From the IMG/VR virus record IMGVR_UViG_3300028536_000015, positions 9,365 to 73,364 of that record: a stretch of 64,000 nt of DNA; one strand, 5' to 3'. Each line of letters begins with the position of its first letter. The first letter of the stretch is position 1. A model generated the notes under the pieces. It saw nothing but the letters and a program-made list of their open reading frames with translations. It was not told the DNA's origin and made no database searches. This document shows, one piece after another, positions 8,130-45,159 of the stretch. The position numbers were made by a program, and so were the translations under genes. This DNA comes from a virus.

Positions 8130-8324
8130 ATGAAAAAACAGGAACTAGAAGCGCTGTACGAGCAGATCGAAGTGCTGGAGCGAGTACGAAAGGCACAGGG
8201 GGAATTCGACGCAAACTCAAAAACCATCCTCATGCTGTTATCGACGGTACGCGAACTTGTAATCCATGCCATCGAGGAACAAAGCCGGGTGTCAAAACTC
8301 ATCCGGTCCAAACCCAAAGGCTAG
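8130..8324 (+). CDS. Hypothetical protein
   Basis: 64-aa helical ORF with a plausible RBS, preceding the sugar cluster. Confidence 0.45.
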   Translation: MKKQELEALYEQIEVLERVRKAQGEFDANSKTILMLLSTVRELVIHAIEEQSRVSKLIRSKPKG

Positions 8325-8342
8325 AATAACGAGAGGGAAACC

Positions 8343-8894: not shown

Positions 8895-9706
8895 TGCATA
8901 AAACGAAAGAGTTTTGGGACCAACAGGCTGAGAAGCATGGCGCTGATCAAGCCGCGACAGCGCCAGACCATTTCTACCGCGATAACATCGAGATCAAGCG
9001 CATCGTTGAAGTCATGACGATCATGGAGCCGGAAGCTATCTTGGATATAGGCTGCGGTAATGGCTATTCCACGATCGAAATCGCCAAGAAGTTTCCGACA
9101 TCGATGGTGATCGGGGTCGATACTAGCGAAAAGATGCTCGAAGAGGCCCGAGAGGCCGCCAAGGGCATCAATAACATCACCTTTTTCCAGGGTGATGTCC
9201 TTACTCTATCCTGGCATCCGAAATTGCAGCATCAAAAGTTCGATGTGGTGCTCAGTGTGCGCTGTTTGATCAATCTGGACAACTGGGAAGAGCAAAAACT
9301 CGCCATTTTGCAGATGCGAAAGCTTCTGACGCCGGACGGTTCTCTGATTTTAGTCGAAAACACCAAAGAGGGACTGGATAAGCTCAATTTGCTCCGTCAG
9401 ATCGTGGATTTGCCCCCGATCGAACAGCGATGGCACAATAATTACATCCCGGAAGACAAATTGAAGCAGTTTGTCGCTGAAAACAACCGAAAACTGTTCC
9501 AACTCATGGCAATGGAGAACATCGGGAACCTCTACTACATCATTTCGAGGGTGGTTTATGCCAAACTTGCGCAAATGGAGGGCAAAGAGCCATCCTATGA
9601 TCACCCACTCAATGAAATAGCATCTCAACTGCCTAGCCTGGGCGATCATTACTCATGTTCACCGAACTATATGATGATCTTAGAGAACATCCCGGACGAA
9701 AGTTAA
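8894..9706 (+). CDS. Class I SAM-dependent methyltransferase
   Basis: ILDIGCGNG motif I; FDVVLSVRCLINL. Confidence 0.9.
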   Translation: MHKTKEFWDQQAEKHGADQAATAPDHFYRDNIEIKRIVEVMTIMEPEAILDIGCGNGYSTIEIAKKFPTSMVIGVDTSEKMLEEAREAAKGINNITFFQGDVLTLSWHPKLQHQKFDVVLSVRCLINLDNWEEQKLAILQMRKLLTPDGSLILVENTKEGLDKLNLLRQIVDLPPIEQRWHNNYIPEDKLKQFVAENNRKLFQLMAMENIGNLYYIISRVVYAKLAQMEGKEPSYDHPLNEIASQLPSLGDHYSCSPNYMMILENIPDES

Positions 9707-24417: not shown

Positions 24418-25272
24418 CTAGAGGATGGGGCGTTGGAAGAGATAAGGTTCTTTGGGGATGACGAGGTTGGCGCGTTGGGTCAGGGGCTTGGCGAGGATTT
24501 CCATGGGAAGTAGTTTTTCTTGGGAGACCAAGAAACTCTCACCCAAGAGTTTGCGCAGCTTGGTGGGGTCGCTGGTGCCGTGGGTCTGGATCAGATGGCG
24601 CATGGTGAGATATCGGCTGTTGAAGTACATGTAGTGGGTTCCTTCTTCGAGCGCGAAGGGTTTGAAACCAGCACCAATGAAGGAGCCTCCGCTGAAACCC
24701 AGGTTGGGGTTGATGAACGTGAATAGGATTTTTGTAGAAAAGTTTTTTATGAGATGACTTGAAAGGCGTTTGGTAAAGTGACTGAAGGTATTTGCGGGAG
24801 CCCATCGGAACGCAAAGAAGCGCGTGTAGGTGAAGGCTTCTGCTGGAACTATTTTATCTTTGATCTTGTCTATGACGTGAGCGAGATCACACAGAGCTAC
24901 ACTACCGATGCAGACGATCTTGCCGCTGGTTTTATCGAGGTAGCCAAAATGGAACCCGGGTCGATAGGACCCAATATAGTGGAAGTTTTCGTGGAGTTTT
25001 TTTGCTATGGTTTCATCTAACTTAATGAACTCCAGATGGTCGAGGGTCAGTTCAGTTCGCGGGGGTGCTAGGTGATGCGCATAGTTCTTGGTTCGTGCTT
25101 GCAGCAAAGCCGCTAGGCGGAACATCTCGTCTCTGAAATCGCCTGGGCCGGGGACCCCGCCATCGGCAGAAAGACGGGGGATGTGGAGTAAGGTTTGGGA
25201 ACGCAGCGCAAGAGGATCGATATTGTGCATTGCGGCACATTCGTCTACCTCGTGCTGATCTAAGACAGTCAT
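24418..25272 (-). CDS. Mom-like (GNAT-fold) putative DNA modification protein
   Basis: HENFHYIG...TRFFAFRWAPANTFS...TFINPNLGFSGGSF resembles the Mom-family HY...R....P.N..S...SY.DP..G..G..Y layout. Confidence 0.55.
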   Translation of the reverse strand: MTVLDQHEVDECAAMHNIDPLALRSQTLLHIPRLSADGGVPGPGDFRDEMFRLAALLQARTKNYAHHLAPPRTELTLDHLEFIKLDETIAKKLHENFHYIGSYRPGFHFGYLDKTSGKIVCIGSVALCDLAHVIDKIKDKIVPAEAFTYTRFFAFRWAPANTFSHFTKRLSSHLIKNFSTKILFTFINPNLGFSGGSFIGAGFKPFALEEGTHYMYFNSRYLTMRHLIQTHGTSDPTKLRKLLGESFLVSQEKLLPMEILAKPLTQRANLVIPKEPYLFQRPIL

Positions 25273-25529
25273 AACAGTTCCTCCCACAGTTCCATGGCGC
25301 GCAATGTCTCCTGATACTCATCTGCTGCCTCCCTGAATACGTCCTTCCCCACTCCTAGATGCTCGTTATAACAGTGCCAGAGCAGCTCGTGGTTGAGCCT
25401 GTCATACCATTCAGTCGTGTCCTTAAGCTCTTGGAACCTCTGAAAAATAGCGGTGTGATCCAGAAGCGGCAGCGCCAGGATCAAGTTGTAAATCTCTTCA
25501 AACGCCGCGCTCTCAGATGTTCGTGACAT
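25269..25529 (-). CDS. Hypothetical protein
   Basis: AGAGGGAA RBS; coupled to the next gene. Confidence 0.6.
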   Translation of the reverse strand: MSRTSESAAFEEIYNLILALPLLDHTAIFQRFQELKDTTEWYDRLNHELLWHCYNEHLGVGKDVFREAADEYQETLRAMELWEELL

Positions 25530-25573
25530 CAGGGTTCCCTCTCATAGGATTGTGGCACAATAAGGGTGAGTGG

Positions 25574-25834
25574 TCATTCATCCAAAAATCTGATACTCTC
25601 ATCGTCAATCACAACCGGACACACTGCGGGTTTCAATCGGGTTTTCTTCCGCAATCGATACGCCTTCATGTAAGCCGCCCTTGCCCGCTTCCGCGATGGC
25701 TTCGGGAAACTCCCGTCCGCAAGCCGGTCCAGGAACTCCTGGCATAGCCGCTTGATCCTGGGGACTAAGCTAGTATCCCTGAAGAACTCAGCCTCTCTCC
25801 TAATCTCTTCATTCGTCATTCTGTAACCCATCAC
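25574..25834 (-). CDS. Hypothetical basic protein
   Basis: RAAYMKAYR pattern; first gene of the leftward array. Confidence 0.5.
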   Translation of the reverse strand: MMGYRMTNEEIRREAEFFRDTSLVPRIKRLCQEFLDRLADGSFPKPSRKRARAAYMKAYRLRKKTRLKPAVCPVVIDDESIRFLDE

Positions 25835-26046
25835 TCATGTTGCTGTAGCCAGTTACATATCGTCTGGCGCAGGTACAACAAGGGTTCAATAGAATTTTTT
25901 ATAAAGAGTCGGGAGACCAAAGAAGTCTCAGACCCCGCCGGCCCTTTCCCTAGCGGCCCTGCCCCCGGCCTGGGTCCCTTTCCCATATCATACTACCTCA
26001 CCCTATAGCCCTAGGGGCGCCCCAGTGCATAGGCACATCACACATG

Positions 26047-26059
26047 CAAGCCATTGATA
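26047..26059. promoter_or_regulatory. IHF consensus site
   Basis: CAAGCCATTGATA is the reverse complement of WATCAA-N4-TTR. Confidence 0.55.
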
Positions 26060-26078
26060 TCATTGATGTATCGCAACG

Positions 26079-26106
26079 TAGTTCCATAATAGATGTTATG
26101 CGAACT
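26079..26106 (-). other. dif-like XerC/XerD recombination site
   Basis: AGTTCGCATAA-CATCTA-TTATGGAACTA: 11-6-11 layout with CGCATAA and TTATG arms. Confidence 0.8.
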
Positions 26107-26549
26107 GTGATGTGGACACGTGTGGGTGCGTGGAGATGGGGAAGAGCGCGGACAGACTACGTATTGCCCTATCTTCCTGCTCGATAGTCTTGGATATCTT
26201 ATCTGTGCCTAGGGAGGCACGAGAGAGCGGGACAACAGGTCTTATGCATCTATTGTGCATCTCTAGCACACCCTCTGTAGGGGCTTTGCAGGGGTAGGTG
26301 TGCGGGGAAAATGTTGCGCTGGGGTCTAAGCTCGGGAGAGCGTTGCGCGCCCTGGTGCGCCTGGAGACATGCACAAATGCATTGCTGCTATGCGTCAGGC
26401 AATTATACCCGGATAGCTTAGCAGCTCTGGTGACTGTGAACATTGTTCACTCATAGCTCCTATGCAATTATGCATGGATTGCTTGCACTTAGCAAGAGCT
26501 ATGTTTGTTTGCATACCTGCTATGCGTTTGCCCCACTAACCCAATTTGT

Positions 26550-26950
26550 ACAAAGGCGTATGTACATCGGGTGAGGCGAGGGCTTGGTGCTCTCGCGGAG
26601 ATACCCGATACCCTTGGATTGAGCCTCCCGCCTGATTGGCGCGGGACACCAGCGAGGTGCAGCTAGCACCATATCGCGGCCAAGTGGCGAACTATAAGCC
26701 ACAGCGCTCCAGCCCTTACGGTTTCGCACTTGCGATAACCCTGGCGACACTAGCGACCAACAGTCCGTTAGTGACTGTGTTAGAGTAGGGGCATGTTCTA
26801 CATGCTGGCGAGGGCTTTCGAGCTAGTAGCCAACCGAGGGTAGCACGGCGGGACCGAAAATCGGGTAGCACTCCATTGCGAGTGTGTGGCGCGGCCACAA
26901 TACCTAAAAGTCCTCTCAAGGCAGCGCCTCTCGACCGTGGCCTATTCCTT
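26550..26950 (+). ncRNA. Large multi-stem structured RNA candidate, family not recognised
   Basis: Five nested long-range helices and several local hairpins, G-U pairs favouring the plus strand, no credible ORF. Confidence 0.65.
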
Positions 26951-27239
26951 GAGATGATACCAAGTTTTGCATTGCACTTAACATGGTCACAATGAGCTTG
27001 GAACGCAGGCTAGCGCTTGCGAAAGGTAAACAGCCGCTTCTCACGAGCCTGACGCTTTCGCCGCACTGCTGGCGCTTACAAGCTCTTCCCTTTTCCTCTT
27101 AGACTACCGCTAATGTTACCTAGTGGGGCTAGCTCGGAACTACATTCCAGGCTGGCCTTACTGCGAAGCATTACGCTTCAGACATGAGAAAGCAAGAAAA
27201 TGCATTCTCATGCTTTTTCTTGAGAGGGAAAACTATACC

Positions 27240-27419
27240 ATGGTCGCAGATCAACGCAAAGGTGCGCGTGCTCGTGCTCGGAACCGTATCAACACCATGT
27301 TGGACAATATGGTTGCCGCCAGCGAAACACCGCAAACCGCCACGTTCTCTAACGCCGCATGTTCCTCCGATATGGAGCATATGCGTTGGGCCGATGATGG
27401 CGGGCGACATCACGACTAA
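27240..27419 (+). CDS. 59-aa hypothetical protein
   Basis: AGAGGG RBS; its stop codon begins repeat copy 2. Confidence 0.55.
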   Translation: MVADQRKGARARARNRINTMLDNMVAASETPQTATFSNAACSSDMEHMRWADDGGRHHD

Positions 27420-27490
27420 TGTTTCGGCATGGGCAGGGAATTATACCTGCCCATTGCGAAGCATTATCGCTTCACAAGAGGGAAATTACC

Positions 27491-27679
27491 ATGACTGACA
27501 AAGGGATGCACACCGCAAGCGCCGGACATGGCCAGGATTGGGGGATTGATAATCTCTCAACTGCCCATGATCACGGGCGCGTTGTTCCGCCCATCGCCTA
27601 TCAGACGCCGGATGTGACTGTCTATGATATCGGTCACGAAAACGACGACCTGATCACGTCAGGTGATACCAATGTCTGA
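27491..27679 (+). CDS. Hypothetical protein
   Basis: AGAGGG RBS after repeat copy 2. Confidence 0.55.
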   Translation: MTDKGMHTASAGHGQDWGIDNLSTAHDHGRVVPPIAYQTPDVTVYDIGHENDDLITSGDTNV

Positions 27680-27743
27680 TGAAGGTACTGCGCTTCTGGC
27701 GCTGATGATCCTCATCGCCTTTACATTCGTTGTCTTGCTCTAA
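27672..27743 (+). CDS. 23-aa hydrophobic peptide
   Basis: MSDEGTALLALMILIAFTFVVLL with AGGTG RBS; its stop begins repeat copy 3. Confidence 0.45.
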   Translation: MSDEGTALLALMILIAFTFVVLL

Positions 27744-27804
27744 TGTTTCGGCATGCAGCATTCGTGCTGCATAGCGAAGCATTACGCTTCAAGAGGGAAA
27801 GACT

Positions 27805-28368
27805 ATGCCAACAATCGAGTTTAGCAATGCATTCGACGCGACAAACAAGCGCGTTCTGTCCGAAGTGTTCGCTATCGTCATCAAGAAACTTGATCTCACT
27901 GAAGATTTCAAGGTCAAGGTCTCGATGGAGTTTATGGATAACAGAAGCCTTTATGCGCGGGTTGCGCGGGGAGGCGAAAAGCTGTTCCTGATGGAAATGA
28001 ACAGCAACGGCTTCAACCTATTCGACGCAACTGCCGCGTTTGGACACGAGCTGATCCACGTGCAGCAGCACATCAAGGGTTGGTTGCGCGTCAAGAATAC
28101 AGGCAAGGTTTGGTCCGATGGGCTCTATTGGAAGGGCGAATTCTATTCCGCTCTTCATCTGATGCTCAACGGCTCCAGCAACTGCGTTCCTTGGGAAATC
28201 GACGCTTGGAAACGCATGGGTGAGCTGCACAAATACGTGGTCTCTCATTTGCCGCCGGCTGATGCCGCGCTGATCGATATCACCAAATCGACCGGCCTTA
28301 AAGATACTTGGAATGCAGACTATGCATCTTGGAAAGAGTGCGAAGAGATTTTTTCTCTTAAACACTAA
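27805..28368 (+). CDS. Zincin-like metallopeptidase
   Basis: HELIHVQQ (HExxH) and PWEIDA. Confidence 0.75.
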   Translation: MPTIEFSNAFDATNKRVLSEVFAIVIKKLDLTEDFKVKVSMEFMDNRSLYARVARGGEKLFLMEMNSNGFNLFDATAAFGHELIHVQQHIKGWLRVKNTGKVWSDGLYWKGEFYSALHLMLNGSSNCVPWEIDAWKRMGELHKYVVSHLPPADAALIDITKSTGLKDTWNADYASWKECEEIFSLKH

Positions 28369-28478
28369 ATCGCTTCTGTCCTGCCGCGTACCTAATAAGC
28401 CTTGAGGAAGGCTTCTCAGGCTTTCTCAAGTACGCGGCAGTGAGAAGCGATTAAGCTTCATGAAGAGGGAAACTTCAA

Positions 28479-28700
28479 ATGACCAAAGCAACAAGCAAGT
28501 CTTGGGATGAGGTTCATGCCGAGCGCGTGGCCTATCGGCGCGCTCACAATAACCAGCCCAATGGCTACCGGCCTGTTACGGAAGCGGAATTGCAGACGCA
28601 ACGGAAAGAACTGTTTAGCGAATTGGAACCGGATATCAATCCGGAAACCAAAATCGTGAGCATTCTCGATCCGAATTTCGGCAAGGTCAAAGCGGCTTAG
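28479..28700 (+). CDS. Hypothetical protein
   Basis: Between repeat copies 4 and 5; RBS present. Confidence 0.6.
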   Translation: MTKATSKSWDEVHAERVAYRRAHNNQPNGYRPVTEAELQTQRKELFSELEPDINPETKIVSILDPNFGKVKAA

Positions 28701-28774
28701 CTTTTCGACACTGCGGAGTTTAATCTCCGCAGCACGAAGCGCTGATGCTTCAAAAGAGGGAAAGAAATTCTACC

Positions 28775-28930
28775 ATGCAAATCTTCAGTGACAGTGACGA
28801 CTTGCCGATGAAGGCTGAAAAACGTGCCGAGACTTCATTGCTCAAATCCTTGTTTTACGAGGATGTTGCAATGAGCGCCGGCTGGGTCTTCATCATCCTG
28901 TGCGTTCTCGTGATTGCGGAGTGGGGCTGA
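28775..28930 (+). CDS. Small membrane protein
   Basis: C-terminal hydrophobic segment; RBS present. Confidence 0.5.
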   Translation: MQIFSDSDDLPMKAEKRAETSLLKSLFYEDVAMSAGWVFIILCVLVIAEWG

Positions 28931-29124
28931 TGAAAAAGATCAAAATCCCTCACCCTGTGCTCCAATGCCCAAAGGTCAGGAAGCGCCGCGTAGAAGCGGG
29001 TATTCTGATCGTTGTGTGCGTGGCGCTGGGCGCGCATTACATCATTCCGGACTACGAAGCTGTGATGAATTTCGCAGCCAGTTTTCTGTTCTGGCTTGAA
29101 CCGAAAATTGCGGTTGAAGTCTAA
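28930..29124 (+). CDS. Small membrane protein
   Basis: TGATG coupling; hydrophobic segments. Confidence 0.55.
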   Translation: MKKIKIPHPVLQCPKVRKRRVEAGILIVVCVALGAHYIIPDYEAVMNFAASFLFWLEPKIAVEV

Positions 29125-29234
29125 GCGTTTCGGCATGGGCTGGTTTATCCAGCCCATAGCGAAGCTCTTGAAGCTTTACATGAAAATGGTTGAGAAACCA
29201 TCCTCATGGTTTATCAATGGAGAGGGAAATACAA

Positions 29235-29390
29235 ATGGCTAAATGTGTTAAGAGCAAGCGTAACGGCAACATCATCAGGGTTTCTGATGAGGAAGCCGCG
29301 CGGCTTGTGAAAGAAAGCGATTTCGCATATGCGCCCAAGAGCGAGTATCGGGCATATATCGCCAAGACTGCCGAGGTGACCCATGCCTGA
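29235..29390 (+). CDS. Hypothetical protein
   Basis: MAKCVKSKRNGNIIRVSDEEAARLV; RBS present. Confidence 0.65.
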   Translation: MAKCVKSKRNGNIIRVSDEEAARLVKESDFAYAPKSEYRAYIAKTAEVTHA

Positions 29391-29550
29391 TATCAATGAT
29401 ATGATGGCCTGGGAAAACGGCGAAATGAATGAAGACCGCGAGGACAAGCTGTTCCAACAGCTTGTTGATAGCGGCTTGGCTTGGACGCTCCAGGGTATGT
29501 ATGGGCGTCGGGCATCGCAGCTATTGAGAGAACGGAGAATTCACCGTTAA
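29383..29550 (+). CDS. 55-aa conserved phage protein (not in ORF track)
   Basis: MPDINDMMAWENGEM...LFQQLVDSGLAWTLQGMYGRRA; the AWxLQGxYGR motif recurs in phage proteins. Confidence 0.7.
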   Translation: MPDINDMMAWENGEMNEDREDKLFQQLVDSGLAWTLQGMYGRRASQLLRERRIHR

Positions 29551-29612
29551 TGTTCATGTCCTGCCGCGTAAGCGCGGTAGTGATGAGCATTTGCTCAAAG
29601 AGGGAGAGACCT

Positions 29613-30026
29613 ATGTCTAAACACAATGTGAGAATGTTGAAAATGGATATCCATGAGACGCCCAAAGCGTTCAATATCAATGGTATCACATTTTCCAAAA
29701 AACGCCTTACTGAACTGTTCCCCGGCTGTGGATGCGACATCAAGACGTTCTATCGGCTAATGATTATCATGCCGTTCTTTGCGTCTCAAAAGAGCGTGGA
29801 AGAAGCCCCAACGGTTACAGGCAAATACGCCATCGCCAAGGCCAAACGGATTTTCGAAAACATCGGCCTGGATGACGCGTCTATTCTGCCGTTCATGCAG
29901 ATTGCGGCGCAACTCGGCGAGCTTCAAATCCCGGAATGCCTGGATGATATCACAGAACAGTGCCACGATCAGATTTGCGGCTGTGGCGCGAAGGTTTCAC
30001 CGGGTACCAAAAATACCCTTCATTAA
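29613..30026 (+). CDS. Hypothetical protein
   Basis: RBS after repeat copy 7. Confidence 0.6.
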   Translation: MSKHNVRMLKMDIHETPKAFNINGITFSKKRLTELFPGCGCDIKTFYRLMIIMPFFASQKSVEEAPTVTGKYAIAKAKRIFENIGLDDASILPFMQIAAQLGELQIPECLDDITEQCHDQICGCGAKVSPGTKNTLH

Positions 30027-30034
30027 CGGAGGGT

Positions 30035-30967
30035 ATGATGGACTTAGCTAAGAGCGCGATGCTAGTAAGCGTCAATATCGTGAATGGCGGATTGCTGGGA
30101 GAACGTAAAAACGCAAAAGCAACGGCCCTGATCCACAAGACCTATTCTATTGCTGATAAGCGTGCCAAAGCCAGCACGTTCTTGATTGACCGTAAGCATC
30201 CTAAAGTCAAAGCGGTTGTCGCAGCCTCACAACGCGTGCGCGAAGTCCTATATAAGTATACGCTATCATGGGGCGACGACAAAACGAGGCTTCTTTCGAT
30301 TTCCGTGCATGAGCTTTTCAGCAAGAAAATATCCGAAGCAGAGGCTGAATTGCGGGAGGCGTGGGATGAGTATCTCCATGTTTATCCGTCGTTGGTTGCC
30401 GATAGCGAGCGCAAGGAAAGCGGCTTAGGCGGCCTGTTTGATGCGTCTCAATATCCAAGCGTCAAGAAGGCCAGAGAGCTTTTTGCTTTTAAGCTCACCT
30501 ATTGGCCGGTTCCTAGCTCGGGTAACTTTGTTGCGGACATCGCCACGGAAGCAGCGGCAAAAGCCAAAGCTGATATGGCGCTGGAGATCGAGACCCGGCT
30601 CAAGACAAGCGCGCAAGAACTTGTCAATCGAGGGCGTGAAGCCGTTGCTACCTTGATGGAGCGGCTTCAGTCTTTCAATAAAAAGGCTGACGGCAAGATT
30701 ATTAAGGATAGCTTGATCAAAAACCTGGAAGAGGTTGCCCATCTGATCGAAGACATGAATATCACGGGAAATTCTGAGATTTATACCATGGCTCATAGGA
30801 TCAGGCGGCTTTCTAAGGTCAGCGCCGTAGGGTATCGAATGAGCCCTCAGTTTAGGGCTAATGGACTTTCTCTCGGGGAAGCCATCCTTAAAGAACAGAT
30901 CGACTTGGATACGCTCGATTTGGAAGTATCTGAAATGGTTGCAGAAGCAGGTGAATACGAGTTTTGA
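30035..30967 (+). CDS. DUF3150-like helical protein
   Basis: YTLSWGD..RLL and LGGLFDASQYPS...F motifs; linked to the AAA/vWA pair. Confidence 0.65.
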   Translation: MMDLAKSAMLVSVNIVNGGLLGERKNAKATALIHKTYSIADKRAKASTFLIDRKHPKVKAVVAASQRVREVLYKYTLSWGDDKTRLLSISVHELFSKKISEAEAELREAWDEYLHVYPSLVADSERKESGLGGLFDASQYPSVKKARELFAFKLTYWPVPSSGNFVADIATEAAAKAKADMALEIETRLKTSAQELVNRGREAVATLMERLQSFNKKADGKIIKDSLIKNLEEVAHLIEDMNITGNSEIYTMAHRIRRLSKVSAVGYRMSPQFRANGLSLGEAILKEQIDLDTLDLEVSEMVAEAGEYEF

Positions 30968-31121
30968 GTGCCTTAAAACTACCACATTATTATGGTTTAC
31001 AGAAAGCTTGAACGAGAGGGAATATGGAAATCTTCTTTATGCTCTACGCCTTAGGACAGGCGATGTTACTTGTTTTGTCCACAAGACGACTAGCGAAAAA
31101 CCCCCATCAGAAGGAATAGCA

Positions 31122-31301
31122 ATGCCAGCACCGTTACCGGATGATATCACGATTGATATCAAACTTTCTGTAGCCCGCGTCGCATGTGAGTTAGCCAAAA
31201 ACTATATCATAATGATGCAGGGTGATCCACGCGATAATCCGCACGGCGATAAGGTTTTAGCGGCCGTTTTGGATCAATTGGACGAAGCGTTGAAAGAATA
31301 A
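31122..31301 (+). CDS. Hypothetical protein
   Basis: AAGGA RBS; its stop begins repeat copy 8. Confidence 0.5.
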   Translation: MPAPLPDDITIDIKLSVARVACELAKNYIIMMQGDPRDNPHGDKVLAAVLDQLDEALKE

Positions 31302-31367
31302 GCTTTCATGTCCACTGGCTTACGAGCCAGTGAGATGAGCGCTTATGCTCAAAGAGGGAGACCTTAA

Positions 31368-32405
31368 ATGCTGAAATGCAAAATTACACAGCTTGCTGAC
31401 GTTGTGTATCCTTTGATCCACGCGAATATTCCCGTGATGATCAAAGGACCTACCGGGGTCGGCAAGTCTGCGGTGATCAATACGGAGATCATGTCCCGTA
31501 TCCGCACGGATTTCGGACAGGCTTCGAGGCTGCATGATATCAGGCTTTCCACAAAAGATATTGTGGATGGCACTGGCATGCCGCTGATCGATCGCGAGAA
31601 GATGGCCACCTATTGGACGCGGCCCGCGTTTGTTCCGGAAGATGACGGCGAAATGCATGTCATGTTCCTTGACGAGTTCGGCCATGCGAATGTTCAACTC
31701 CAGCAGATGTCTTATCAGTTGGTGTTGGATCGTTCGTGCGGCGGATATCCATTGCCCAAAAAGAACCGCATTATCCTTGGCTCGAACACCAGGGAAGACG
31801 GCGGCGGCGACAACAAGATGTTGAAGCCGCTGGAAAATCGTATGGCACATATCCAGGTGGAAGTCGATGAGATGGGCTTCATTGAGTTGATCAAGAAGTG
31901 GGGATGGGACAAGCGTCTGATTGCTTTCCTCAACCTGCGCCCTGAGTTGATCCATAAGGTGGACCCGAACCATCCGTCCTTTCCGACGCCGCGCTCTCTT
32001 GAGAACTTCAACAAAGTCCTTCAGGACCCGGCGCTGGCTCATTTGGACCCCAAGCCGCTCAAGTCTGTCCTGGAAAGCGCCGCGAGGTCTATCTTGGGCG
32101 AGGGGTTTGCGCATCAGTTCAGCACGTTCCTGGATCGTATCACCGCTGGTCTGCCCAAGATCGCAGATATCCTGGCGGACCCGACCAAGGCCAAGATGCC
32201 CGCTGATGCCCATTTCCAGTGGCTGATTGCCGGCACCATCTCGCGCAACATGAACGCCAAGAATGCCCCGGCGTTCGCCAAGTACTTGGCTCGCATGTCG
32301 CCTGACATTGCGTCCATGTGTGTTCATGATGCAATCTCGCGGGATCGTGCTTTGGGCGATGTTGTTTCGCTCAAGGCGCTGTTGTTGGAAGGATCGGGGA
32401 AGTAA
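31368..32405 (+). CDS. MoxR-like AAA+ ATPase
   Basis: GPTGVGKS, FLDE, PLENR, FPTPRS motifs. Confidence 0.9.
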   Translation: MLKCKITQLADVVYPLIHANIPVMIKGPTGVGKSAVINTEIMSRIRTDFGQASRLHDIRLSTKDIVDGTGMPLIDREKMATYWTRPAFVPEDDGEMHVMFLDEFGHANVQLQQMSYQLVLDRSCGGYPLPKKNRIILGSNTREDGGGDNKMLKPLENRMAHIQVEVDEMGFIELIKKWGWDKRLIAFLNLRPELIHKVDPNHPSFPTPRSLENFNKVLQDPALAHLDPKPLKSVLESAARSILGEGFAHQFSTFLDRITAGLPKIADILADPTKAKMPADAHFQWLIAGTISRNMNAKNAPAFAKYLARMSPDIASMCVHDAISRDRALGDVVSLKALLLEGSGK

Positions 32406-32406
32406 G

Positions 32407-32643
32407 ATGCAGGATTTATTTTATCTTCTTGCATCGATCTTTCTAATCTTGATGATGGCGTGGATGTTTAGCCGCTCAGGATTTGACGATAGCGACAAGA
32501 GCCGTAGCGAGCGTTCTGGTTTGATGATCTTCACGGATCACAAGACTGGTTGCCAATACGTTGGAACTATCCTTGGAGGTATTACTCCGCGCCTTACCTC
32601 GCAAGGTACTATTCTCTGTGTTTCCGAAGAGAAAAAAGATTGA
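32407..32643 (+). CDS. Small membrane protein (DUF6440-like)
   Basis: Hydrophobic segment followed by TDHKTGCQY...GGITPRL. Confidence 0.65.
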   Translation: MQDLFYLLASIFLILMMAWMFSRSGFDDSDKSRSERSGLMIFTDHKTGCQYVGTILGGITPRLTSQGTILCVSEEKKD

Positions 32644-32750
32644 CGTTTCCACTCATGGGCTTACGAGCCCATGCAGGAAGCGCCTAATGCTTTACATAAG
32701 AAAGCTTGAGTAAGCATTCTTATGGTTCATCAAGAAAGAGGGAGATATTA

Positions 32751-33980
32751 ATGTTTGGAATGAAACCGAATGCAATGCGGCGGATGCTTCTGGCGCGGGA
32801 GCGGATCGCGAGAAAGAACCCGTTCTTTGCATCCATCTTGTTCGGCGCCAATATCATCGAGAGCAAAAAGCATCAGACGATTTGGAGCGATGGATTGAAC
32901 ATCCTTTTCAATAAAGACTATGTTGAAGAGGGGAACAATGACAAATACATTGAGGGAGATGTCCTTCACTCCGTTCTACACTGTGCCTTGCTGCATCATC
33001 CTCGCAAGCGCTATCGCGATCCCAAGAGATGGAATGAAGCCTGCGACTATCCTGTCAACGCCGTGGTCAAGGACTACTTTCCTTTGTCCCCGGATGCCTT
33101 GACCAGCCAGAAGTATGGCGCCTTGGCACCGGAAGCTGTCTATGAACTGCTTCAGAGACAAGAAGAAAAGCAGCAAGGCAAAGGCAAGCCTCAGAAGTCC
33201 AAGGGTAAGCCTGAGAAGGGCGACAAAGGAGACGACAGTGGGCAGGGCGAGAACGATGAGAATGATCAGGACGATGGTGAGGGGCAGGAAAAAGAACAGC
33301 CCGGCACCATGTTTGAGCCTGACCCTGAGGATCAGGAACAGGATAGCGAGGAAAACGAGCGTCAGTGGAAAAGAGTTCTCACCGGCGCGATCGAGAAATC
33401 GCCTCCTGGGACCATGCCGGGAAGTCTCCAGCGCCTGATCCTGGATATCTTTCCAAAAGACAAGATCGATTGGAAGGACCTGATCCGGGATATGTCACGG
33501 GATGCCAAATCGAAGGCTACCAGAACGTGGCATCGGCCTAATCGGCGCCGCCTTGGCAATGATGAGTATATGCCGGGCTATGGCAACGATAACGTCTACA
33601 AGCTTGTCATGTGCCTGGATGTCTCGGGTTCGGTCAGTCAGCAAATGATCCAGGAAATGTGCGATGAGGCCGCAAGCCTTCTCGATCAGGACCTGGTCAC
33701 GAATGTTACGCTGATCTCCGTCGATACGCGCATTCAGAATGTCTTGGAGGCAACAACCGGCGAGGATATCAAGGGTTGGAACGCAGGGGGCGGGGGAGGA
33801 ACAGACTTCCGCAGCGCCATGGATACTATCGGCAAGATGGAGGATGTCATTGGCTGTATCTTTCTGACAGACATGGCCACGAGTTCCTTTGGTACCGAGC
33901 CCCCGTTTGGGGTAGTATGGGTCGATTGGAGCGGTGGTGGCAGCAAGGCGCCTTATGGGCGCACTGTTTCTTACCGCTGA
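32751..33980 (+). CDS. DUF2201-type metallopeptidase-like plus vWA domain protein
   Basis: HSVLH (HExxH-like, Glu absent), WNEACD..VN, acidic linker, DVSGS MIDAS, GGGGTDF, LTD. Confidence 0.85.
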   Translation: MFGMKPNAMRRMLLARERIARKNPFFASILFGANIIESKKHQTIWSDGLNILFNKDYVEEGNNDKYIEGDVLHSVLHCALLHHPRKRYRDPKRWNEACDYPVNAVVKDYFPLSPDALTSQKYGALAPEAVYELLQRQEEKQQGKGKPQKSKGKPEKGDKGDDSGQGENDENDQDDGEGQEKEQPGTMFEPDPEDQEQDSEENERQWKRVLTGAIEKSPPGTMPGSLQRLILDIFPKDKIDWKDLIRDMSRDAKSKATRTWHRPNRRRLGNDEYMPGYGNDNVYKLVMCLDVSGSVSQQMIQEMCDEAASLLDQDLVTNVTLISVDTRIQNVLEATTGEDIKGWNAGGGGGTDFRSAMDTIGKMEDVIGCIFLTDMATSSFGTEPPFGVVWVDWSGGGSKAPYGRTVSYR

Positions 33981-34035
33981 TGCTTAAACACAGAGGCTTA
34001 CAAGCCTCTGCATTAAGCACCATTAGGAGGGAAAC

Positions 34036-34332
34036 ATGAGAGATTACGTAGAACGTTCCTTGCTGATCAAGGGCCCATGGAATTTAGACGGAACAGAAGA
34101 TTTGAGTCATTGGGGTAATGCCACCTTCATAAGGCATATTACACCAAAGGGACCTGTAATAGAAATGAACCAAGGGGACCAATGGCATACCAGCATTCAT
34201 AAAGTTCCGGGGCTCAATATTCCATATTGGCTATCCGGAAGACTACCTGAGGAATATAAGCAGATAAGATATTTTCCAGACGCTGATCCGTTTGATGACG
34301 TGGTATGTCTGGAGGGAGGAAATGATGCGTGA
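34036..34332 (+). CDS. Hypothetical protein (paralog A)
   Basis: GGAGG RBS; WNLDGTEDLSHW. Confidence 0.6.
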   Translation: MRDYVERSLLIKGPWNLDGTEDLSHWGNATFIRHITPKGPVIEMNQGDQWHTSIHKVPGLNIPYWLSGRLPEEYKQIRYFPDADPFDDVVCLEGGNDA

Positions 34333-34633
34333 TATATTCGATGAGTATACCTGGAACCTGACAGGGCAAGAAGACCTGAACAGTTGGCGCCATCAAACTC
34401 AAAAATGGTACAAGACAAAAAGAGGGTGGTTTCTAACCACTACGGAAGACTACGGTTCAGTAATTCAACATTGGTTCTCTACGAATTCTGATAGTGATCT
34501 TCTTCCTGTATGGAACTTATGGGATGGAGCGATACTGCCTTATGATATCCTCGATGCTGAAGCTAACTGGGATCATAGTTTCGATTTGATCGATATCGAG
34601 CTGGCTGAGATGATCATGAAGGGGGAGCTTTAG
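34322..34633 (+). CDS. Hypothetical protein (paralog B)
   Basis: GGAGG RBS; WNLTGQEDLNSW. Confidence 0.6.
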   Translation: MMRDIFDEYTWNLTGQEDLNSWRHQTQKWYKTKRGWFLTTTEDYGSVIQHWFSTNSDSDLLPVWNLWDGAILPYDILDAEANWDHSFDLIDIELAEMIMKGEL

Positions 34634-34684
34634 AGGGAGGCAAGAGCACGGCTTGGTTATCATCATCAATCTTTACACCAAGTT

Positions 34685-34955
34685 TCCATAGCCGCTCCCC
34701 GCTCTCTCCCGGCTAGGTAAAGCCAGAGCAGTGGGAGCCAGCTAGCGCGTATCCCTGAGGTACCCGATATCGGGGGGTCAGCCGCCCGGCCTGCATTTGA
34801 GTTGCAGAACTGCCGTACATGCCTCAGGTACAGGCATAGCCTTGGCGGCATTTGCCTGGGTCGGGGTTTACCCCGCGCTTCGTCCTTGGAATTCCGCCAA
34901 GCCGCCTTAGGAGATGGGATTTCGACCTGCTCAGACGGCTAAAAGCCGGGCTGTG
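34685..34955 (-). ncRNA. GC-rich structured RNA candidate
   Basis: Many stems and a loop-distal pairing GTACCTG/CGGGTAC; no credible ORF. Confidence 0.45.
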
Positions 34956-34968
34956 GGACTTTTTCGGG

Positions 34969-34997
34969 TTGATTAACTGTTACACTATGACTATAAG
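34969..34997 (+). promoter_or_regulatory. Putative sigma70 promoter
   Basis: TTGATT-N17-TATAAG. Confidence 0.5.
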
Positions 34998-35044
34998 AAG
35001 CCTGTGCACAATTTCTGGATCGTCCTCAAAGTCAATCCAGCCCG

Positions 35045-35075
35045 AAGCCGTCCTGCTCCTACAGGGCGGCTTTTG
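35045..35075 (+). terminator. Intrinsic terminator
   Basis: AAGCCGTCCTG/CAGGGCGGCTT stem followed by T residues. Confidence 0.65.
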
Positions 35076-35106
35076 TGGTTCTGCACTAAGATGTTGCGTA
35101 TGTCAA

Positions 35107-35613
35107 TTAGTTGCCAGATTTTTCATCAGTCGGTGGTATTAGAATATTCCCGTCCTCCAGCTTGACGCCCAACGTATTTTCTATCGTTTTAGCATCCATT
35201 CCCAGTTCCTTGAGTTCCCCTTTAATGTAGCTGAGCAGTTGTTCCGGCGATTGATTATCAAAATCCCCAGGACCGCCAACCTCTTTGCGATCCAAAAACA
35301 TGCGGAACATCTCGCCGCCAAGAAGCTTCGCGTTAGTGGCAGCCGCCGCCATCTGGCCTAGCTTTCGGCTCAGTTCCCAATCATCGAAAACGCGCTGTAG
35401 GATTTGCGAGCGGGAGAGCTGAGCCCTCCTAGCGTTGACATCCATTAGCTCATTGACGCGCCTCCTAATGACCTTGCGGGCCATCCTGCGGGAGGCGGCC
35501 AGTGGCGGGTTACCAGAAGTTCCACCTGTCTCCAGGTAGGCATCAGCGGGTTCCTTGCCGGCGACCACCATCTGGCAGAACCGCTCGTCTTCTAGGTTTC
35601 TTAGAACTCCCAT
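35107..35613 (-). CDS. Putative terminase small subunit
   Basis: ERFCQ..V.G....DAY...G...AASR......IRRRVNEL N-terminal HTH typical of TerS. Confidence 0.7.
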   Translation of the reverse strand: MGVLRNLEDERFCQMVVAGKEPADAYLETGGTSGNPPLAASRRMARKVIRRRVNELMDVNARRAQLSRSQILQRVFDDWELSRKLGQMAAAATNAKLLGGEMFRMFLDRKEVGGPGDFDNQSPEQLLSYIKGELKELGMDAKTIENTLGVKLEDGNILIPPTDEKSGN

Positions 35614-35642
35614 GCAAATCCTCTTAATCCTCTTGAGAGAGT

Positions 35643-35680
35643 AAAAAAGACCCCCTGAGAGTTATCCCAGAGGGTCTAAG
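35643..35680 (-). terminator. Intrinsic terminator after the AAA ATPase gene
   Basis: AGACCCTCTG...CAGGGGGTCT followed by a T run on the minus strand. Confidence 0.7.
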
Positions 35681-35708
35681 AAAAAGCAACATATCGGATG
35701 GGGGAGGA

Positions 35709-37532
35709 TTAGATGCTACTTCCTTCCGACCTTTCACGGTCGAAAGCCGTCATAAGGCCAATAACCCTTCGTAAGACTGCGGTATCGACCTTCTTGTTTT
35801 CGGACTTTGCCAACGTCTGGCTCAGCCTGATGGCGTTCTTGATCTGGCGACCATTGATGTCGAGCGGGATAAGCTGGGCAACGTCGATGCCCGTGATGCC
35901 CGCGCTCTCCAACAGGTTATTCCAGATTTTCTCTCGCTTGTCATCCGCACCCTTCGTAAAGTGCAGCGCCACCGAAATACGCGAATAGAACGCAGTGTCG
36001 ATGTTCTTGACGCGGTTGGTGGTCAGGAACAAAACACCATGATGGTATTCGAGTAGTCTGAGGAACACACCGACCATGGCATTGCGCGTGATATCGTGCT
36101 CGTCCCTGGCCTCCAGGTAAATATCCGCCTCATCGAGGAGGATCACCGCGTTCCATACCGTAGCAACGTCTAGGATGACCCGTAGGCGCTCTTCGAGCTG
36201 GTCGGGCGTCACCCCTAGCTCTCCGACCGAAATCGCATACAGGGGCCTCTTAAGCAGTTCTGCGATGGTCTCAGCCGTCAGGGTCTTGCCTTGGCCGGGC
36301 GGACCATGCAGCAGGAAGATGCAACCGCCGCCCTTGCCCTCGATCAGGTCCGAGAAGGAACCGTCGTTGTGTTCGACCAGCGCCCGCACCAGCTTCTTCT
36401 CGTCGTCGGCCAGCACCAGCTTATCAAAACTATCTGACCGCCATGCGATTTCCGACAATCCCTTGATCGCCATCCGGCCCCAGCGCTTGGCTCTGAAACT
36501 AAAACCATAGACATAAGGGAAGGTTCTCCAGAGATCGTTTTCCGTGGGCGTATAGGCGACAACCTTGTGAACCGCGTTATCCCCGTCACGAACGCCAGCC
36601 AAATGGGTACTTCGCATTTCGCTGGTGAACTGATCGTTATCCACGCGCTTGAACGAATGAACGTCGATCATCACGCGGCCATCTGCGCGGAACGTCTCGT
36701 TGCTCCACCAGCTAGAACGCGTGAGCTGTCCAGTGTACGAAAGATACGTCGCACCTTTCGCGCACTTGACGTAGAGCTTGCCGTATTCCGAAAGCTTTTT
36801 CTTCACTTCCGGCGTGACTGTCTTGATGTGAAGGTCCTCGATCTTTTTGAGACCTTCGTAGGAGCCCAGCGACGCAACATATTTTCCGGGAACCAAATCA
36901 CCCTGCACCGCGTGGATGATATCCATGGTGACGGCCAGAAACTGACTGCCAAACCAAGTCGATTGGACGCCGGCATTTGAAACAACCCCGGCAATGGTGT
37001 TGCCGTCGTCGTCGCTGAAGTAGACTTCCTTGCCGGTCGAAAAGTAAAACGGCAGATCGTCAAAAGCAACGGCGCCTTGGAGAACCTGACGTGCGACCGC
37101 TTCTTCGATATCCTTGATCCTGGTTTCCAGGACTTTCAGGATCATCGCGATCTCTGCCGACTGGTTTTCGATGCCAATCGGATCACCCTCGTCATCCGTG
37201 GGCCCCCAGTGATAACCATATTGGGAAAGTCCGGGAACCCACTTGTTCTTGGTCCGAGCCAATTCACCCAACGGAAACACGCTGTTCATGCGGCTCATGC
37301 GGGCATGACCGAAAACATCCTGAAGCTGGCGAGTAAACGCTGCGTTGAAGTGCTTATTGGGAGAACGCGAGAAGTCCAGGAACTCCTCACCAAACTTATC
37401 TCGCTCGAAAGAGAAAAAATCGGCGAGGTTATTTTTCGCGAGCAGTTCCTTGACGCCCTTGGGGGTCAGAAGCTGGTCGGTCTTGACCGCCTCGCTGAGA
37501 TAAGCGGCGGCGGTGGTTTCTTTTGGTGTCAT
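35709..37532 (-). CDS. AAA+ ATPase with long N-terminal region, resembling a fungal AAA family
   Basis: GKGGGCIFLLHGPPGQGKTLTAE, WNAVILLDEAD, FLRLLEY, LFLTTNR, DTAFYSRI. Confidence 0.85.
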   Translation of the reverse strand: MTPKETTAAAYLSEAVKTDQLLTPKGVKELLAKNNLADFFSFERDKFGEEFLDFSRSPNKHFNAAFTRQLQDVFGHARMSRMNSVFPLGELARTKNKWVPGLSQYGYHWGPTDDEGDPIGIENQSAEIAMILKVLETRIKDIEEAVARQVLQGAVAFDDLPFYFSTGKEVYFSDDDGNTIAGVVSNAGVQSTWFGSQFLAVTMDIIHAVQGDLVPGKYVASLGSYEGLKKIEDLHIKTVTPEVKKKLSEYGKLYVKCAKGATYLSYTGQLTRSSWWSNETFRADGRVMIDVHSFKRVDNDQFTSEMRSTHLAGVRDGDNAVHKVVAYTPTENDLWRTFPYVYGFSFRAKRWGRMAIKGLSEIAWRSDSFDKLVLADDEKKLVRALVEHNDGSFSDLIEGKGGGCIFLLHGPPGQGKTLTAETIAELLKRPLYAISVGELGVTPDQLEERLRVILDVATVWNAVILLDEADIYLEARDEHDITRNAMVGVFLRLLEYHHGVLFLTTNRVKNIDTAFYSRISVALHFTKGADDKREKIWNNLLESAGITGIDVAQLIPLDINGRQIKNAIRLSQTLAKSENKKVDTAVLRRVIGLMTAFDRERSEGSSI

Positions 37533-43184: not shown

Positions 43185-43657
43185 AGAATATCTTCTCGAA
43201 TCTTTACGCACTTGATGACAAGTGCGTAAAGATGGTGAATGACGCGTATCTATGGGCGCTAGATTGGACCGGTATCTATGTCGGGACGATCCTACTCATC
43301 AATTGCGCGCCGGGCTTTGCGTTCTTATGGTATAAGTTGCCGGCATGGATGAGCCTGTTCTTTCTTACCTGTGTATTGATCATGGCTTGCCAGATGTACT
43401 GGCTGCAAAATTCTGGTAATAAAATCCAGTTCAATGCTTATGCCGAGATGGTGAGGGGCGCCATGTATAGATGGTGCTTTCTTGGCCTTAATATCGGCTC
43501 ATTGATGGCTGATATCTTTCTCAATCATCTAACGCTGTTGCAGGTGTTGGGGGATATTGATGCTATCTTGTTCTGGTACATCATCTGTATCAAGATCAGA
43601 GACCGCGAAAAGAAGAAGTTCCTCCTGCCAAAGATGGCCTATGGCATTAACACCTGA
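43181..43657 (+). CDS. Multi-pass membrane protein
   Basis: About four hydrophobic segments; coupled. Confidence 0.6.
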   Translation: MKNIFSNLYALDDKCVKMVNDAYLWALDWTGIYVGTILLINCAPGFAFLWYKLPAWMSLFFLTCVLIMACQMYWLQNSGNKIQFNAYAEMVRGAMYRWCFLGLNIGSLMADIFLNHLTLLQVLGDIDAILFWYIICIKIRDREKKKFLLPKMAYGINT

Positions 43658-44444
43658 GCAAGTAAAAGCGAGAGCTGGGAAACTAACCGCGTCCCGCGTC
43701 GGAGCGCTAGTCAGTGGCGATAAAGAAAAGGTTCTTGATGTTTGGAAAGAGCTTGTTGGCGACCCTAGTTGGATAGAGCCTGATTTTTCGGATAATTGGC
43801 CAGTCCAACTCGGGGAGGCTACTGAAGCTCTCAATTTGAGATGGTACTCGAAGAGGACCGGCAACATCTTGACTAGACAAGGCGATGTCGTGATACACCC
43901 TGATTATGATTGGGCAGCGGCGACCTTGGACGGTTATGATGCCGTTCTCGCGTGTCCCGTTGAAACCAAATGCGTTGGCGGGTGGGAAAAAACTGAGACG
44001 GTTATCCAGAGATATATGCCTCAGCTTCAATGGCAATGTGAGGTGACTCAGTCGAAGAAGTGCGCGATCTCCATCATCGCGGGCTCTGCCGAGCCCTATA
44101 TCGAGTACATCAAATACGACAAAGATTACGCCGACGAACTGATGGCGCGCGCGCACCGGTTCATGAATCATGTCTGGATGATGGCGCCGCCCGTTGTTAT
44201 CGAGAAGGCTGTTCCTGTATATGTTGCGCACGATAAAATGCGGGAAATAAATGCCTATGGCAACAATACGTTTGCCGCAATGGCGTCACAATATATCGAC
44301 AATAAGAAGAACGCAGCGGACTTCAAAGAAGCTGAGACAAAACTAAAAGAACTGATGCCGCCAGATGCCAAGCGAATGTTTGGCTACTTTCTCCAATTGA
44401 AGCGAGCCAAAAATGGAACCATCCGTATTAGCGCCTTGGATTGA
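43641..44444 (+). CDS. YqaJ/lambda-exonuclease-family nuclease
   Basis: R.GKLTAS, G...E, ATLDG, VETKC, YMPQLQWQ motifs. Confidence 0.9.
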   Translation: MALTPEQVKARAGKLTASRVGALVSGDKEKVLDVWKELVGDPSWIEPDFSDNWPVQLGEATEALNLRWYSKRTGNILTRQGDVVIHPDYDWAAATLDGYDAVLACPVETKCVGGWEKTETVIQRYMPQLQWQCEVTQSKKCAISIIAGSAEPYIEYIKYDKDYADELMARAHRFMNHVWMMAPPVVIEKAVPVYVAHDKMREINAYGNNTFAAMASQYIDNKKNAADFKEAETKLKELMPPDAKRMFGYFLQLKRAKNGTIRISALD

Positions 44445-45159
44445 TACTACCCGTTCTGAAAACATTGATGCGTTGGTAGATGCGCTATCTAAGGCTCAAG
44501 CCAAGATCACCGCGCCAGATCGCAATCGCTCGGTTCACGTAGATATGAAAGGTGGCGGGACTTACGATTTCTCGTATGCTACGCTTTCTCATATCATCGA
44601 AAAGATACGTGGTCCGCTGACCGAGAATGGTCTGTGGTTTACACAAATCATGAAAGAGGACCAGGGGACATACATCCTGGATACGCGCCTGATGCATTCA
44701 AGTGGCCAATGGATCGCTTGTCAGATGCCATTGATCTGGGATGGCATGGGCGGCAATCAGAAATTCGGTTCGGCGCTGACATTCATGCGGCGCTATGCCC
44801 TGACAAGCCTCTTGGGGATCGCAGCCGAAGAAGATGACGACGCTAATGCGGCTGACGGCAACCAGATGACCGACCGTAAGCCGAACGCGCCTAAGCCTGA
44901 TGTGATGAGCGACGCCGCTACCACCCAGCCGAAGAAACTAACGGTGCCGGTCCCACTCCATCCCCTGTCGGGAGATTGGGCACTCTTTGGTCGCGCTCTT
45001 ATTACCTACGTGAAGGATTCCAAAGACTATAAGGAGGCCGAACAGTGGATTTCTCATAATCAGGAAATCATGGATACCATGAAGACTGCGGCACCCAAGA
45101 TGTGGACCAACCTGACTACCTCGCTGACCAAAGTCATGGATGACAAAGGAGCGCAATAA
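44413..45159 (+). CDS. erf: ERF-family ssDNA annealing protein
   Basis: ALSKAQ, YATL, HSSGQW, GSALTFMRRYAL...EDDDAN. Confidence 0.9.
   Translation: MEPSVLAPWIDTTRSENIDALVDALSKAQAKITAPDRNRSVHVDMKGGGTYDFSYATLSHIIEKIRGPLTENGLWFTQIMKEDQGTYILDTRLMHSSGQWIACQMPLIWDGMGGNQKFGSALTFMRRYALTSLLGIAAEEDDDANAADGNQMTDRKPNAPKPDVMSDAATTQPKKLTVPVPLHPLSGDWALFGRALITYVKDSKDYKEAEQWISHNQEIMDTMKTAAPKMWTNLTTSLTKVMDDKGAQ

Follow-up and report, generated by a model that had tools for sequence, protein, structure and literature searches.

Covarying RNA elements at the gene junctions of a viral operon: candidate processing sites with a latent 5′ hairpin

What is the role of a structured RNA that recurs, always on the same strand, at almost every gene junction of one viral operon? 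The question is raised by a stretch of DNA of 64,000 nucleotides, referred to here as the window, which comprises bases 9365-73364 of the virus record IMGVR_UViG_3300028536_000015 in IMG/VR (73,364 bases, estimated to be 98% complete). Ten copies of an intergenic element lie on the + strand between positions 27111 and 34026 of the window. Each copy can form a main fold, in which a basal stem and an upper stem are separated by a small internal loop, and nine of the ten possess in addition a short downstream sequence, termed here the alternative partner, that can pair with the 3′ strand of the basal stem in place of its 5′ strand. The presence of a ten-copy array in the gene junctions of one operon is confirmed as a real observation, and we consider it very probable that the element is a selected cis element acting at the level of RNA. 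As to what it does, processing of the operon transcript by an enzyme of the RNase III type is the function that we favour, tentatively.

The array was delimited with a covariance model, for which the ten window copies were aligned by MAFFT. Run over the 64 kb with filters off, the model returned exactly ten matches on the + strand, scoring 35.5-56.6 bits (E 4e-7 to 7.5e-13), and no further match at E 1e-4; the best non-element match was the minus-strand mirror of copy 10, at 24.8 bits. An initial annotation, made from the sequence alone, had placed ten elements at these positions, had described nine as beginning at the stop codon of the upstream gene and the first as lacking a gene upstream, and had proposed a covariance model as a check; all of this holds, and only a 27-codon open frame is found upstream of copy 1. 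Folded one at a time, the window copies have energies of -20 to -53 kcal/mol. The copies are as follows.

27111-27181, + strand: copy 1; no upstream gene, the element lying in the first gene's 5′ leader; long upper stem of about 18 bp; alternative partner present; 35.5 bits.
27417-27475, + strand: copy 2; the TAA of a 59-aa gene opens the basal stem; alternative partner, followed by GAGGGA at 27478; 47.7 bits.
27741-27792, + strand: copy 3; UUCG tetraloop; 49.8 bits.
28366-28461, + strand: copy 4; long upper stem, 22 bp over 28-nt arms; 45.6 bits.
28698-28753, + strand: copy 5; 55.3 bits.
29122-29179, + strand: copy 6; the alternative pairing includes one G-U; 46.5 bits.
29548-29599, + strand: copy 7; UGAGC/GCUCA basal variant; 50.9 bits.
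31299-31353, + strand: copy 8, upstream of the ATPase gene; UGAGC/GCUCA variant, UACG tetraloop; 54.6 bits.
32641-32695, + strand: copy 9; UACG tetraloop; 56.6 bits.
33978-34026, + strand: copy 10, the last of the array; no alternative partner, with the Shine-Dalgarno sequence (SD) directly after; 45.0 bits.

The same element is found in other viruses. A protein search gave one close relative, whose ATPase is 81% identical, and a motif scan of IMG/VR gave five more viral contigs with several matches each. These six related contigs carry 6-12 copies each, in a single cluster and on a single strand per genome; applied to their array regions at E <= 0.05, the model returned 56 matches on the array strand and four weak mirror matches. 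A profile search with an alignment of the ATPase recovered the same six contigs and no others, so that all seven known members of the clade carry the array. The contigs are from soil metagenomes. The 58 elements from these seven viral contigs (the window and its six relatives) constitute the main comparative set. A scan of metagenome contigs gave at least 119 stretches, and 80 loci were examined; 25 of the 80 contained at least 67 further copies, three of them identical to copies already known, and the copies within each locus were all on one strand. At least about 125 natural sequence variants are thus represented, 58 in the viral contigs and 67 in metagenome contigs.

Beyond this group the searches were negative. 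In a pattern scan of prokaryote genomes, with 185,579 species represented by one genome each, every match stood alone and no locus had two; these single matches are treated as chance, and no sign of the element was found in cellular genomes. Positions 27000-34100 matched no GenBank phage by megablast or blastn. By protein, the nearest GenBank ATPases are those of N4-like phages (about 27-33% identity), and the 17 kb around the ATPase gene of one N4-like phage, Xanthomonas phage RiverRider, contained no element, the best score being 10.8 bits. Rfam 15 at the gathering threshold gave no match in the whole window; at E <= 10 it gave spurious sub-threshold matches to microRNAs, small nucleolar RNAs and the like, the best of which reached 28.4 bits where the gathering score is 98. 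No tRNAs were found. The search of Rfam and phage databases, which the initial annotation had also suggested, therefore matched no described family, and no description of such arrays was found in the main texts of a limited full-text literature collection.

The main fold comprises a basal stem of about 9 bp, an internal loop (3x2 in 43 of the 58 copies, 2x2 in 14) and an upper stem of 8-10 bp. From the foot of the basal stem to the top of the upper arm the helix measures 19-22 positions in 51 copies, the others having insertions in the top, and it is closed by an apical tetraloop in 34, of the UNCG or GNRA type in 25 of these. Its pairing is supported by extensive covariation. The model-fitted alignment, A3, has 59 rows (the 58 elements plus one mirror match), and standard pairing is found in 94.8% of its 879 cells, with two-sided changes in 12 of 15 pairs (221 cells). 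None of 500 shuffled controls reached the observed pairing values, and when the partner was slid by 1-3 columns only 36-47% of cells were paired. A model-fitted alignment itself favours the structure; this concern is answered by the agreement of two further results. A structure-blind MAFFT alignment of the ten window copies gave 13 RNAalifold pairs, 10 of them with double changes, and a replicate on the 67 metagenome copies was 95.9% paired, again with double changes in 12 of 15 pairs. At one and the same junction in six genomes (for example, ATPase/VWA), the upper stems are unrelated in sequence, yet fully paired. Folding and covariation therefore agree with the initial description of a basal stem, a small internal loop and an upper stem that is variable but paired.

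The basal part of the fold is the conserved one. Three of its pairs (G-C, U-G and U-A) are nearly fixed in sequence, and an AGC is invariant in all 59 rows. The pair at columns 6/143 is U-G in 52 of the 59 rows, which agrees with an initial suggestion that G-U pairs favour the transcribed strand; the same strand asymmetry is seen in the mirror matches, which score at most 25 bits. The loop bases beside the basal stem (columns 11 and 137 of A3) are G/G in 31 and A/A in 23 of the 59 rows and never G/A, a pattern that looks like covariation of a non-canonical pair and is accounted for by no explanation tested.

Two versions of the element, of 145-147 nt, follow homologues of a 73-aa gene in two related contigs (L018, 10554-10700, minus strand; L017, 5865-6009). 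Both use the rare GGAGC/GCUCC basal variant and have an insert of about 90 nt in the top, partly alike between the two phages, which may be a nested RNA.

The 3′ basal strand itself varies, reading GAAGC in 43 of the 58 copies, UGAGC in 9, UAAGC in 3, AGAGC in 2 and GGAGC in 1, and a second sequence varies with it. Between the stem and the SD, 52 of the 58 copies contain a perfect antiparallel 5/5 partner of this strand, where shuffled tails predict 2.5; the alternative pairing is purely Watson-Crick in 50. The covariance model aligns the tail that holds this partner by sequence only. At the first variable pair of the alternative hairpin the combinations are GC in 39 copies, UA in 8, AU in 2, GU in 2, UG in 1 and other in 3, and at the second AU in 41, GC in 11, GU in 1 and other in 2. 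The partner is kept despite insertions of 12-30 nt in the loop of the hairpin (in L018, L014 and L016). The alternative hairpin has an energy of -6 to -8 kcal/mol and begins 2-3 nt past the internal loop. It and the main fold both use the 3′ basal strand and are mutually exclusive, and because the main fold is far stronger the alternative fold can last only with the 5′ strand cut away or covered. A second, exclusive and covarying partner had been claimed initially for nine window copies, and nine have it, copy 10 being without. In the full set 6 of 58 copies are without a partner, including this last copy of the window array and likewise the last copies of the arrays in L018, L013 and L017.

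Elements 2 and 3 of L014 contain, on the array strand, the same hairpin of about 27 nt (GGUUUUUGC...GCAAAAUACC), inserted in the alternative-hairpin loop of one element and the apical loop of its neighbour. The stems of elements 1 and 2 in this contig are identical, which suggests a recent duplication.

The position of the element relative to translation signals is as regular as its fold. The upstream stop codon marks the start of the helix, and about 12-20 nt separate the helix end from a uniform GAGGGA. In 48 of the 58 copies the stop codon has its first base at model position -2 to 0, with 46 closing frames of at least 25 codons, and GAGGGA or a close variant starts -3 to +11 nt from the model end, also in 48 of 58, some of the misses being regular-expression failures or the result of inserted hairpins. 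A TGA stop is tolerated in the stem at the price of an A-C mismatch (14 'other' cells at pair 3/146), so the coding signal outranks pairing. No elements are found at overlapping or abutting genes. The initial annotation had a GAGGGA just after every copy; this is true directly of seven, and the other three (copies 1, 6 and 9) have a further hairpin, hp2, of about 40 nt in between.

27185-27222, + strand: hp2 after copy 1, before the GAGGGA at 27224.
29180-29221, + strand: hp2 after copy 6.
32697-32749, + strand: hp2 after copy 9, upstream of the DUF2201/VWA gene.

The hp2 hairpins are a family with a stem like CAUGAGAA/UUCUCAUG, followed by GGUUYAUCAA; a partial likeness to them precedes the gene at 31024. 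Short assembled contigs from four other soil runs were aligned to the window, and among these variants hp2 is missing after copy 1 (27184 joined to 23, run X2), after copy 6 (29176 or 29139 joined to 29221, X5 and X7) and after copy 9 (32692 or 32682 joined to 32749 or 32751). Since variant contigs are without hp2 at all three places, it appears to be an optional insert; evidence from these contigs is suggestive only, because they are short and repeats can break or mis-join assemblies.

With which known system should such an element be compared? RNase III-type punctuation of a phage early transcript is, as a kind, classic. In the Nicholson review (PMC3867540), the idealised E. coli RNase III substrate is a helix of 22 bp, or two A-helical turns, in which loops or mismatches at the target site permit cleavage of a single strand, leaving stabilising 3′ hairpins; the early precursor of T7, of ~7000 nt, has five RNase III signals. 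The helix described here is of two-turn length by this E. coli standard, and its internal loop is central, between stems of 9 bp and 8-10 bp. When the early intergenic regions of T7 were folded, five of six gave two-storey hairpins (840-926, 1428-1498, 3096-3173, 5823-5925 and 6390-6477) with upper stems of 9-13 bp, and the 0.6/0.7 junction did not. We take these hairpins to be the RNase III sites R0.3, R0.5, R1, R1.1 and R1.3, the T7 record having no such annotation.

The T7 hairpins resemble the elements in being repeated and intergenic, in having a lower stem, an internal loop and an upper stem, and in lying beside a stop codon and an SD. One of them (840-926), flanked by promoter A3 and gene 0.3, precedes the first gene as a leader copy, as copy 1 does here; at another (1428-1498) the stop codon of gene 0.4 is inside the lower stem and the next SD reads GAGGGAG, nearly the same word as GAGGGA. 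There are also clear differences. T7 conserves the sequence of the upper stem, whereas the elements conserve the basal stem and loop; no covarying alternative partner of the 3′ lower strand was seen in the T7 sites; and the five signals given for the T7 early precursor (PMC3867540) compare with ten or more copies per operon here. A model of the element, run on T7 1-9000, reached at most 10.7 bits, and none of its matches fell on an intergenic hairpin of the + strand; the likeness is therefore convergent, one of plan and not of descent.

The alternative hairpin has a parallel of its own. The protective role of 5′-terminal hairpins is established for E. coli, and Emory, Bouvet and Belasco reportedly described in 1992 the 5′-terminal stem-loop stabilisers of E. 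coli mRNAs, of the ompA and papA type. In both, a short hairpin lies only a few nucleotides from the 5′ end and just upstream of the SD; the difference is that the hairpin here is latent in a larger fold and would exist only once the upstream strand is cut away.

We propose that the elements are processing and stability sites of the host RNase III type, because the two-turn helix, central loop, free upper stem, tetraloops, junction position and leader copy match the RNase III plan; for the whole chain of steps, we would put this somewhat short of an even chance. Each element would be an RNA-level punctuation module of one long transcript. A double-strand-specific endonuclease would bind the two-turn helix and, as happens at the early sites of T7, nick it in its internal loop. 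The enzyme is most likely host RNase III, because the phages encode none: no phage RNase III (PF14622) was found in four of four genomes. (T7-type RNA polymerase, PF00940, was likewise found in none of the four, a weak blank, as the PF00940 control was positive nowhere.) After the nick, the upstream message would retain the upper hairpin as a 3′ cap against exonucleases, and ribosomes terminating at the stop codon inside the 5′ basal strand would help to strip the basal duplex. The freed 3′ basal strand could then snap onto its downstream partner, forming a 5′-terminal hairpin with 2-3 unpaired nucleotides in front, which would shield the monophosphate end from 5′-end-dependent decay and leave the SD open. 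The predicted outcome is one message per cassette, with standard ends, and because every cassette would receive the same ends, genes could be added, lost or reordered without a new expression context. The initial annotation had offered an RNase III site with a refolding 5′ hairpin as one of three possibilities; every computable feature fits it, and from a plan like that of T7 we infer the cut itself, the enzyme and the effect on stability.

Several observations weigh against processing. The conserved part is the basal stem and loop pair, with AGC paired to G-U-U, unlike T7, and such a box could mark a sequence-specific protein. A pure processing model needs no stop codon fixed to the first bases of the stem. 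The six copies that lack the alternative partner include the last copy of several arrays. Finally, the junction between the core genes F1 and F2 has an element in L018 and none in the window; since a junction may carry an element in one phage and lack it in another, no single copy is essential.

The fixed stop codon would be expected if the element were a translation switch, an explanation that we regard as unlikely. A ribosome at the stop would melt the basal stem, and the 3′ strand would take its downstream partner, with the result that initiation at the next SD is changed or the RNA is hidden from cleavage during its translation. The constant placement of the stop codon (model position -2 to 0) is in its favour, and the partner, rich in pyrimidines (GCUUC, GCUCA or GCUCU), is capable of weak pairing with the purine-rich SD. 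Blocking of the 5′ strand lowers the mean cost of opening the SD from 2.6 to 1.9 kcal/mol (n=63), with a drop of >2.5 kcal/mol in several copies, in a computation where the stem parse was wrong for some copies with a short outer helix and the per-copy cut points were approximate. A mean effect of only about 0.7 kcal/mol is smaller than such a switch predicts, however, and the partner is often 0-3 nt from the SD, so near that the two cannot form a hairpin. No gene lies upstream of copy 1, the uniform strong SDs should initiate alone, and the main fold, which is 15-40 kcal/mol more stable than the alternative, would re-form after the ribosome departs. Of the translation-coupled switch in the initial annotation, the stop codon in the stem is retained; the small effect on the SD and the leader copy speak against the rest.

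The elements might instead be hairpins that are never cut, comparable to repetitive extragenic palindromic (REP) sequences or to T4 intercistronic hairpins, blocking 3′ exonucleases after cuts elsewhere and denying RNase E or Rho any naked stretch between cistrons. The very stable upper stems with UNCG or GNRA loops are what stability or insulation hairpins would require, as is the close flanking by stop codon and SD, which leaves almost no unstructured untranslated RNA. We nevertheless judge this quite unlikely: it leaves unexplained the constant two-turn length, the central loop with its G/G-A/A covariation, and a covarying partner whose pairing is stable only without the 5′ strand.

A further explanation is suggested by the gene content of the arrays. 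The seven arrays contain four core genes (F1, the DUF3150-like F2, the ATPase F3 and the DUF2201/VWA F4) and several small accessory families, in varying order and position and always bounded by elements. In the window, a trio found in all seven arrays occupies 30038-33980 and encodes the 309-aa DUF3150-like protein, a MoxR/AAA ATPase (phrog_1297) and a DUF2201 metallopeptidase-like/VWA protein. In variant contigs from X2 and X5 a 78-aa gene is missing, the joint running from 32392 to 32641, that is, from the ATPase stop region to copy 9; other joints and loose ends of variant contigs lie at 27807, 29548 and 29592.

It could be argued from this that the elements are mainly DNA crossover sites, homologous or site-specific, that move cassettes. 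The same gene families do occupy different positions and orders between elements, the 78-aa gene is absent exactly between the ATPase stop region and copy 9, and the window encodes at 43557-45156 a RecE-like exonuclease (phrog_434, 7e-33) followed by an Erf-like annealing protein (phrog_2324, 2.9e-37), a pair that could act on short homologies such as the elements. We consider such a primary role very unlikely. No tyrosine recombinase (PF00589) was found in four genomes that are all >=98% complete (G000, G001, G002 and G004), in a search whose control was positive in 14 of 14 genomes. The compensatory changes, conserved U-G pair and strand asymmetry point to RNA, and a reshuffled operon will always have its breaks in intergenic DNA, a space that elements occupy here. 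Comparison of element halves with flanking genes gave no clear signal, either for pairs that share only the upstream gene (-0.10 against a background of -0.14) or for tails that share only the downstream gene (0.02 against -0.02). Of the recombination handles in the initial annotation, the change of gene order and content at elements among relatives is borne out; an integrase was not found. Exchange at the elements is likely a consequence of the repeat and not its primary function.

Two known systems are relevant to this explanation. Integron attC sites likewise follow the small, co-oriented cassettes of an array as imperfect hairpins whose base is conserved, whose centre has unpaired bases and whose top varies; they were rejected on the absence of a tyrosine recombinase from the four near-complete genomes. 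The elements differ from them in being fixed to translation signals, without an integrase. The basal strand AAUGUUUCG does not fit what we take to be the attC R-box consensus. The closest published parallel for modular shuffling is provided by the promoter-early stem-loops (PeSLs) of T4-type phages. According to two reports (Arbiol et al. 2010, PMC2839356; Comeau et al. 2014, PMC4122927), these combine a strong sigma-70-like promoter with an effective terminator; they are short repeated intergenic motifs flanking small, mostly unknown non-essential genes in plastic regions, and they coincide with places where related phages differ by the insertion, deletion or replacement of genes. PeSLs, however, act on DNA and transcription, whereas the elements have neither promoter nor terminator, are tied to a stop codon and an SD, and exhibit RNA covariation that includes an alternative fold. 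No promoter-like match overlaps any of the ten window copies. Intrinsic termination was likewise rejected: none of the ten copies was flagged, there is no U run, the tails read CGCUUCAAGAGGGA, and the 20 terminator-like sites in 25000-36000 all fall outside the elements.

Least probable of all, with only a slight likelihood, are binding sites of a phage RNA-binding protein (an antiterminator, translational regulator or hairpin endonuclease), for which the invariant AGC/GUU box and the G/G or A/A loop pair (54 of 59 rows) are more specific than is usual at RNase III sites, but for which no candidate was found, the array genes being without RNA-binding or nuclease family matches, and the invariant AGC is explained as well by its need to pair with two partners. 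The 309-aa protein (30038-30967) was rejected as an RNA enzyme: it matched DUF3150-like viral Atlas clusters (DUF3150 occurs in 12% of the members of the nearest), and its AlphaFold2 model (mean pLDDT 72.7) had no Foldseek match in the PDB at E <= 0.001.

The surroundings of the array have features of their own. Between the divergent minus-strand genes and the array, about 1.8 kb (25290-27110) contains no open reading frame of >=120 aa and no promoter match above 9/12. When the 2.2 kb upstream of the arrays was compared, the only stretches in common were about 110 nt (26451-26560) with L015, at 76%, and 54 nt with L018, and no promoter was identified; the region could hold the operon promoter or leader, or an RNA of its own. 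On the other side, at 35648-35677 (minus strand), a strong terminator-like hairpin of 13 pairs followed by TTTTTT lies where the + strand array region meets convergent minus-strand replication genes.

Processing of the RNase III type is thus the reading that we prefer. A more ambitious formulation, which we regard as possible but doubtful, makes the element a self-contained RNA insulator of three strands, namely the 5′ strand, the 3′ strand and the latent partner: a nuclease substrate that would turn into two protective end-hairpins on cleavage or on arrival of a ribosome, that would give every message identical ends and an identical ribosome-binding site and so allow genes to be shuffled, gained and lost freely, and in which the loop pair and the locked stop codon would make cleavage conditional on translation of the upstream gene. 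What appears to be new is the covarying latent 5′ hairpin, the covariation in the loop, the stop codon in the stem, the number of copies and the link to cassettes.

The present value of the finding lies in the strength of the comparative evidence, the mechanism being a proposal. The element represents an undescribed structured RNA family, ready for Rfam-style curation, and is a candidate natural part for insulating genes in synthetic operons. If the proposed mechanism is true, these phages would have a second, independently evolved and more elaborate version of the T7-like solution for a long early transcript; the element would be a rare repeat that unites a processing signal, both protective ends and a translation start; and RNA processing would be linked to the modular evolution of phage accessory genes.

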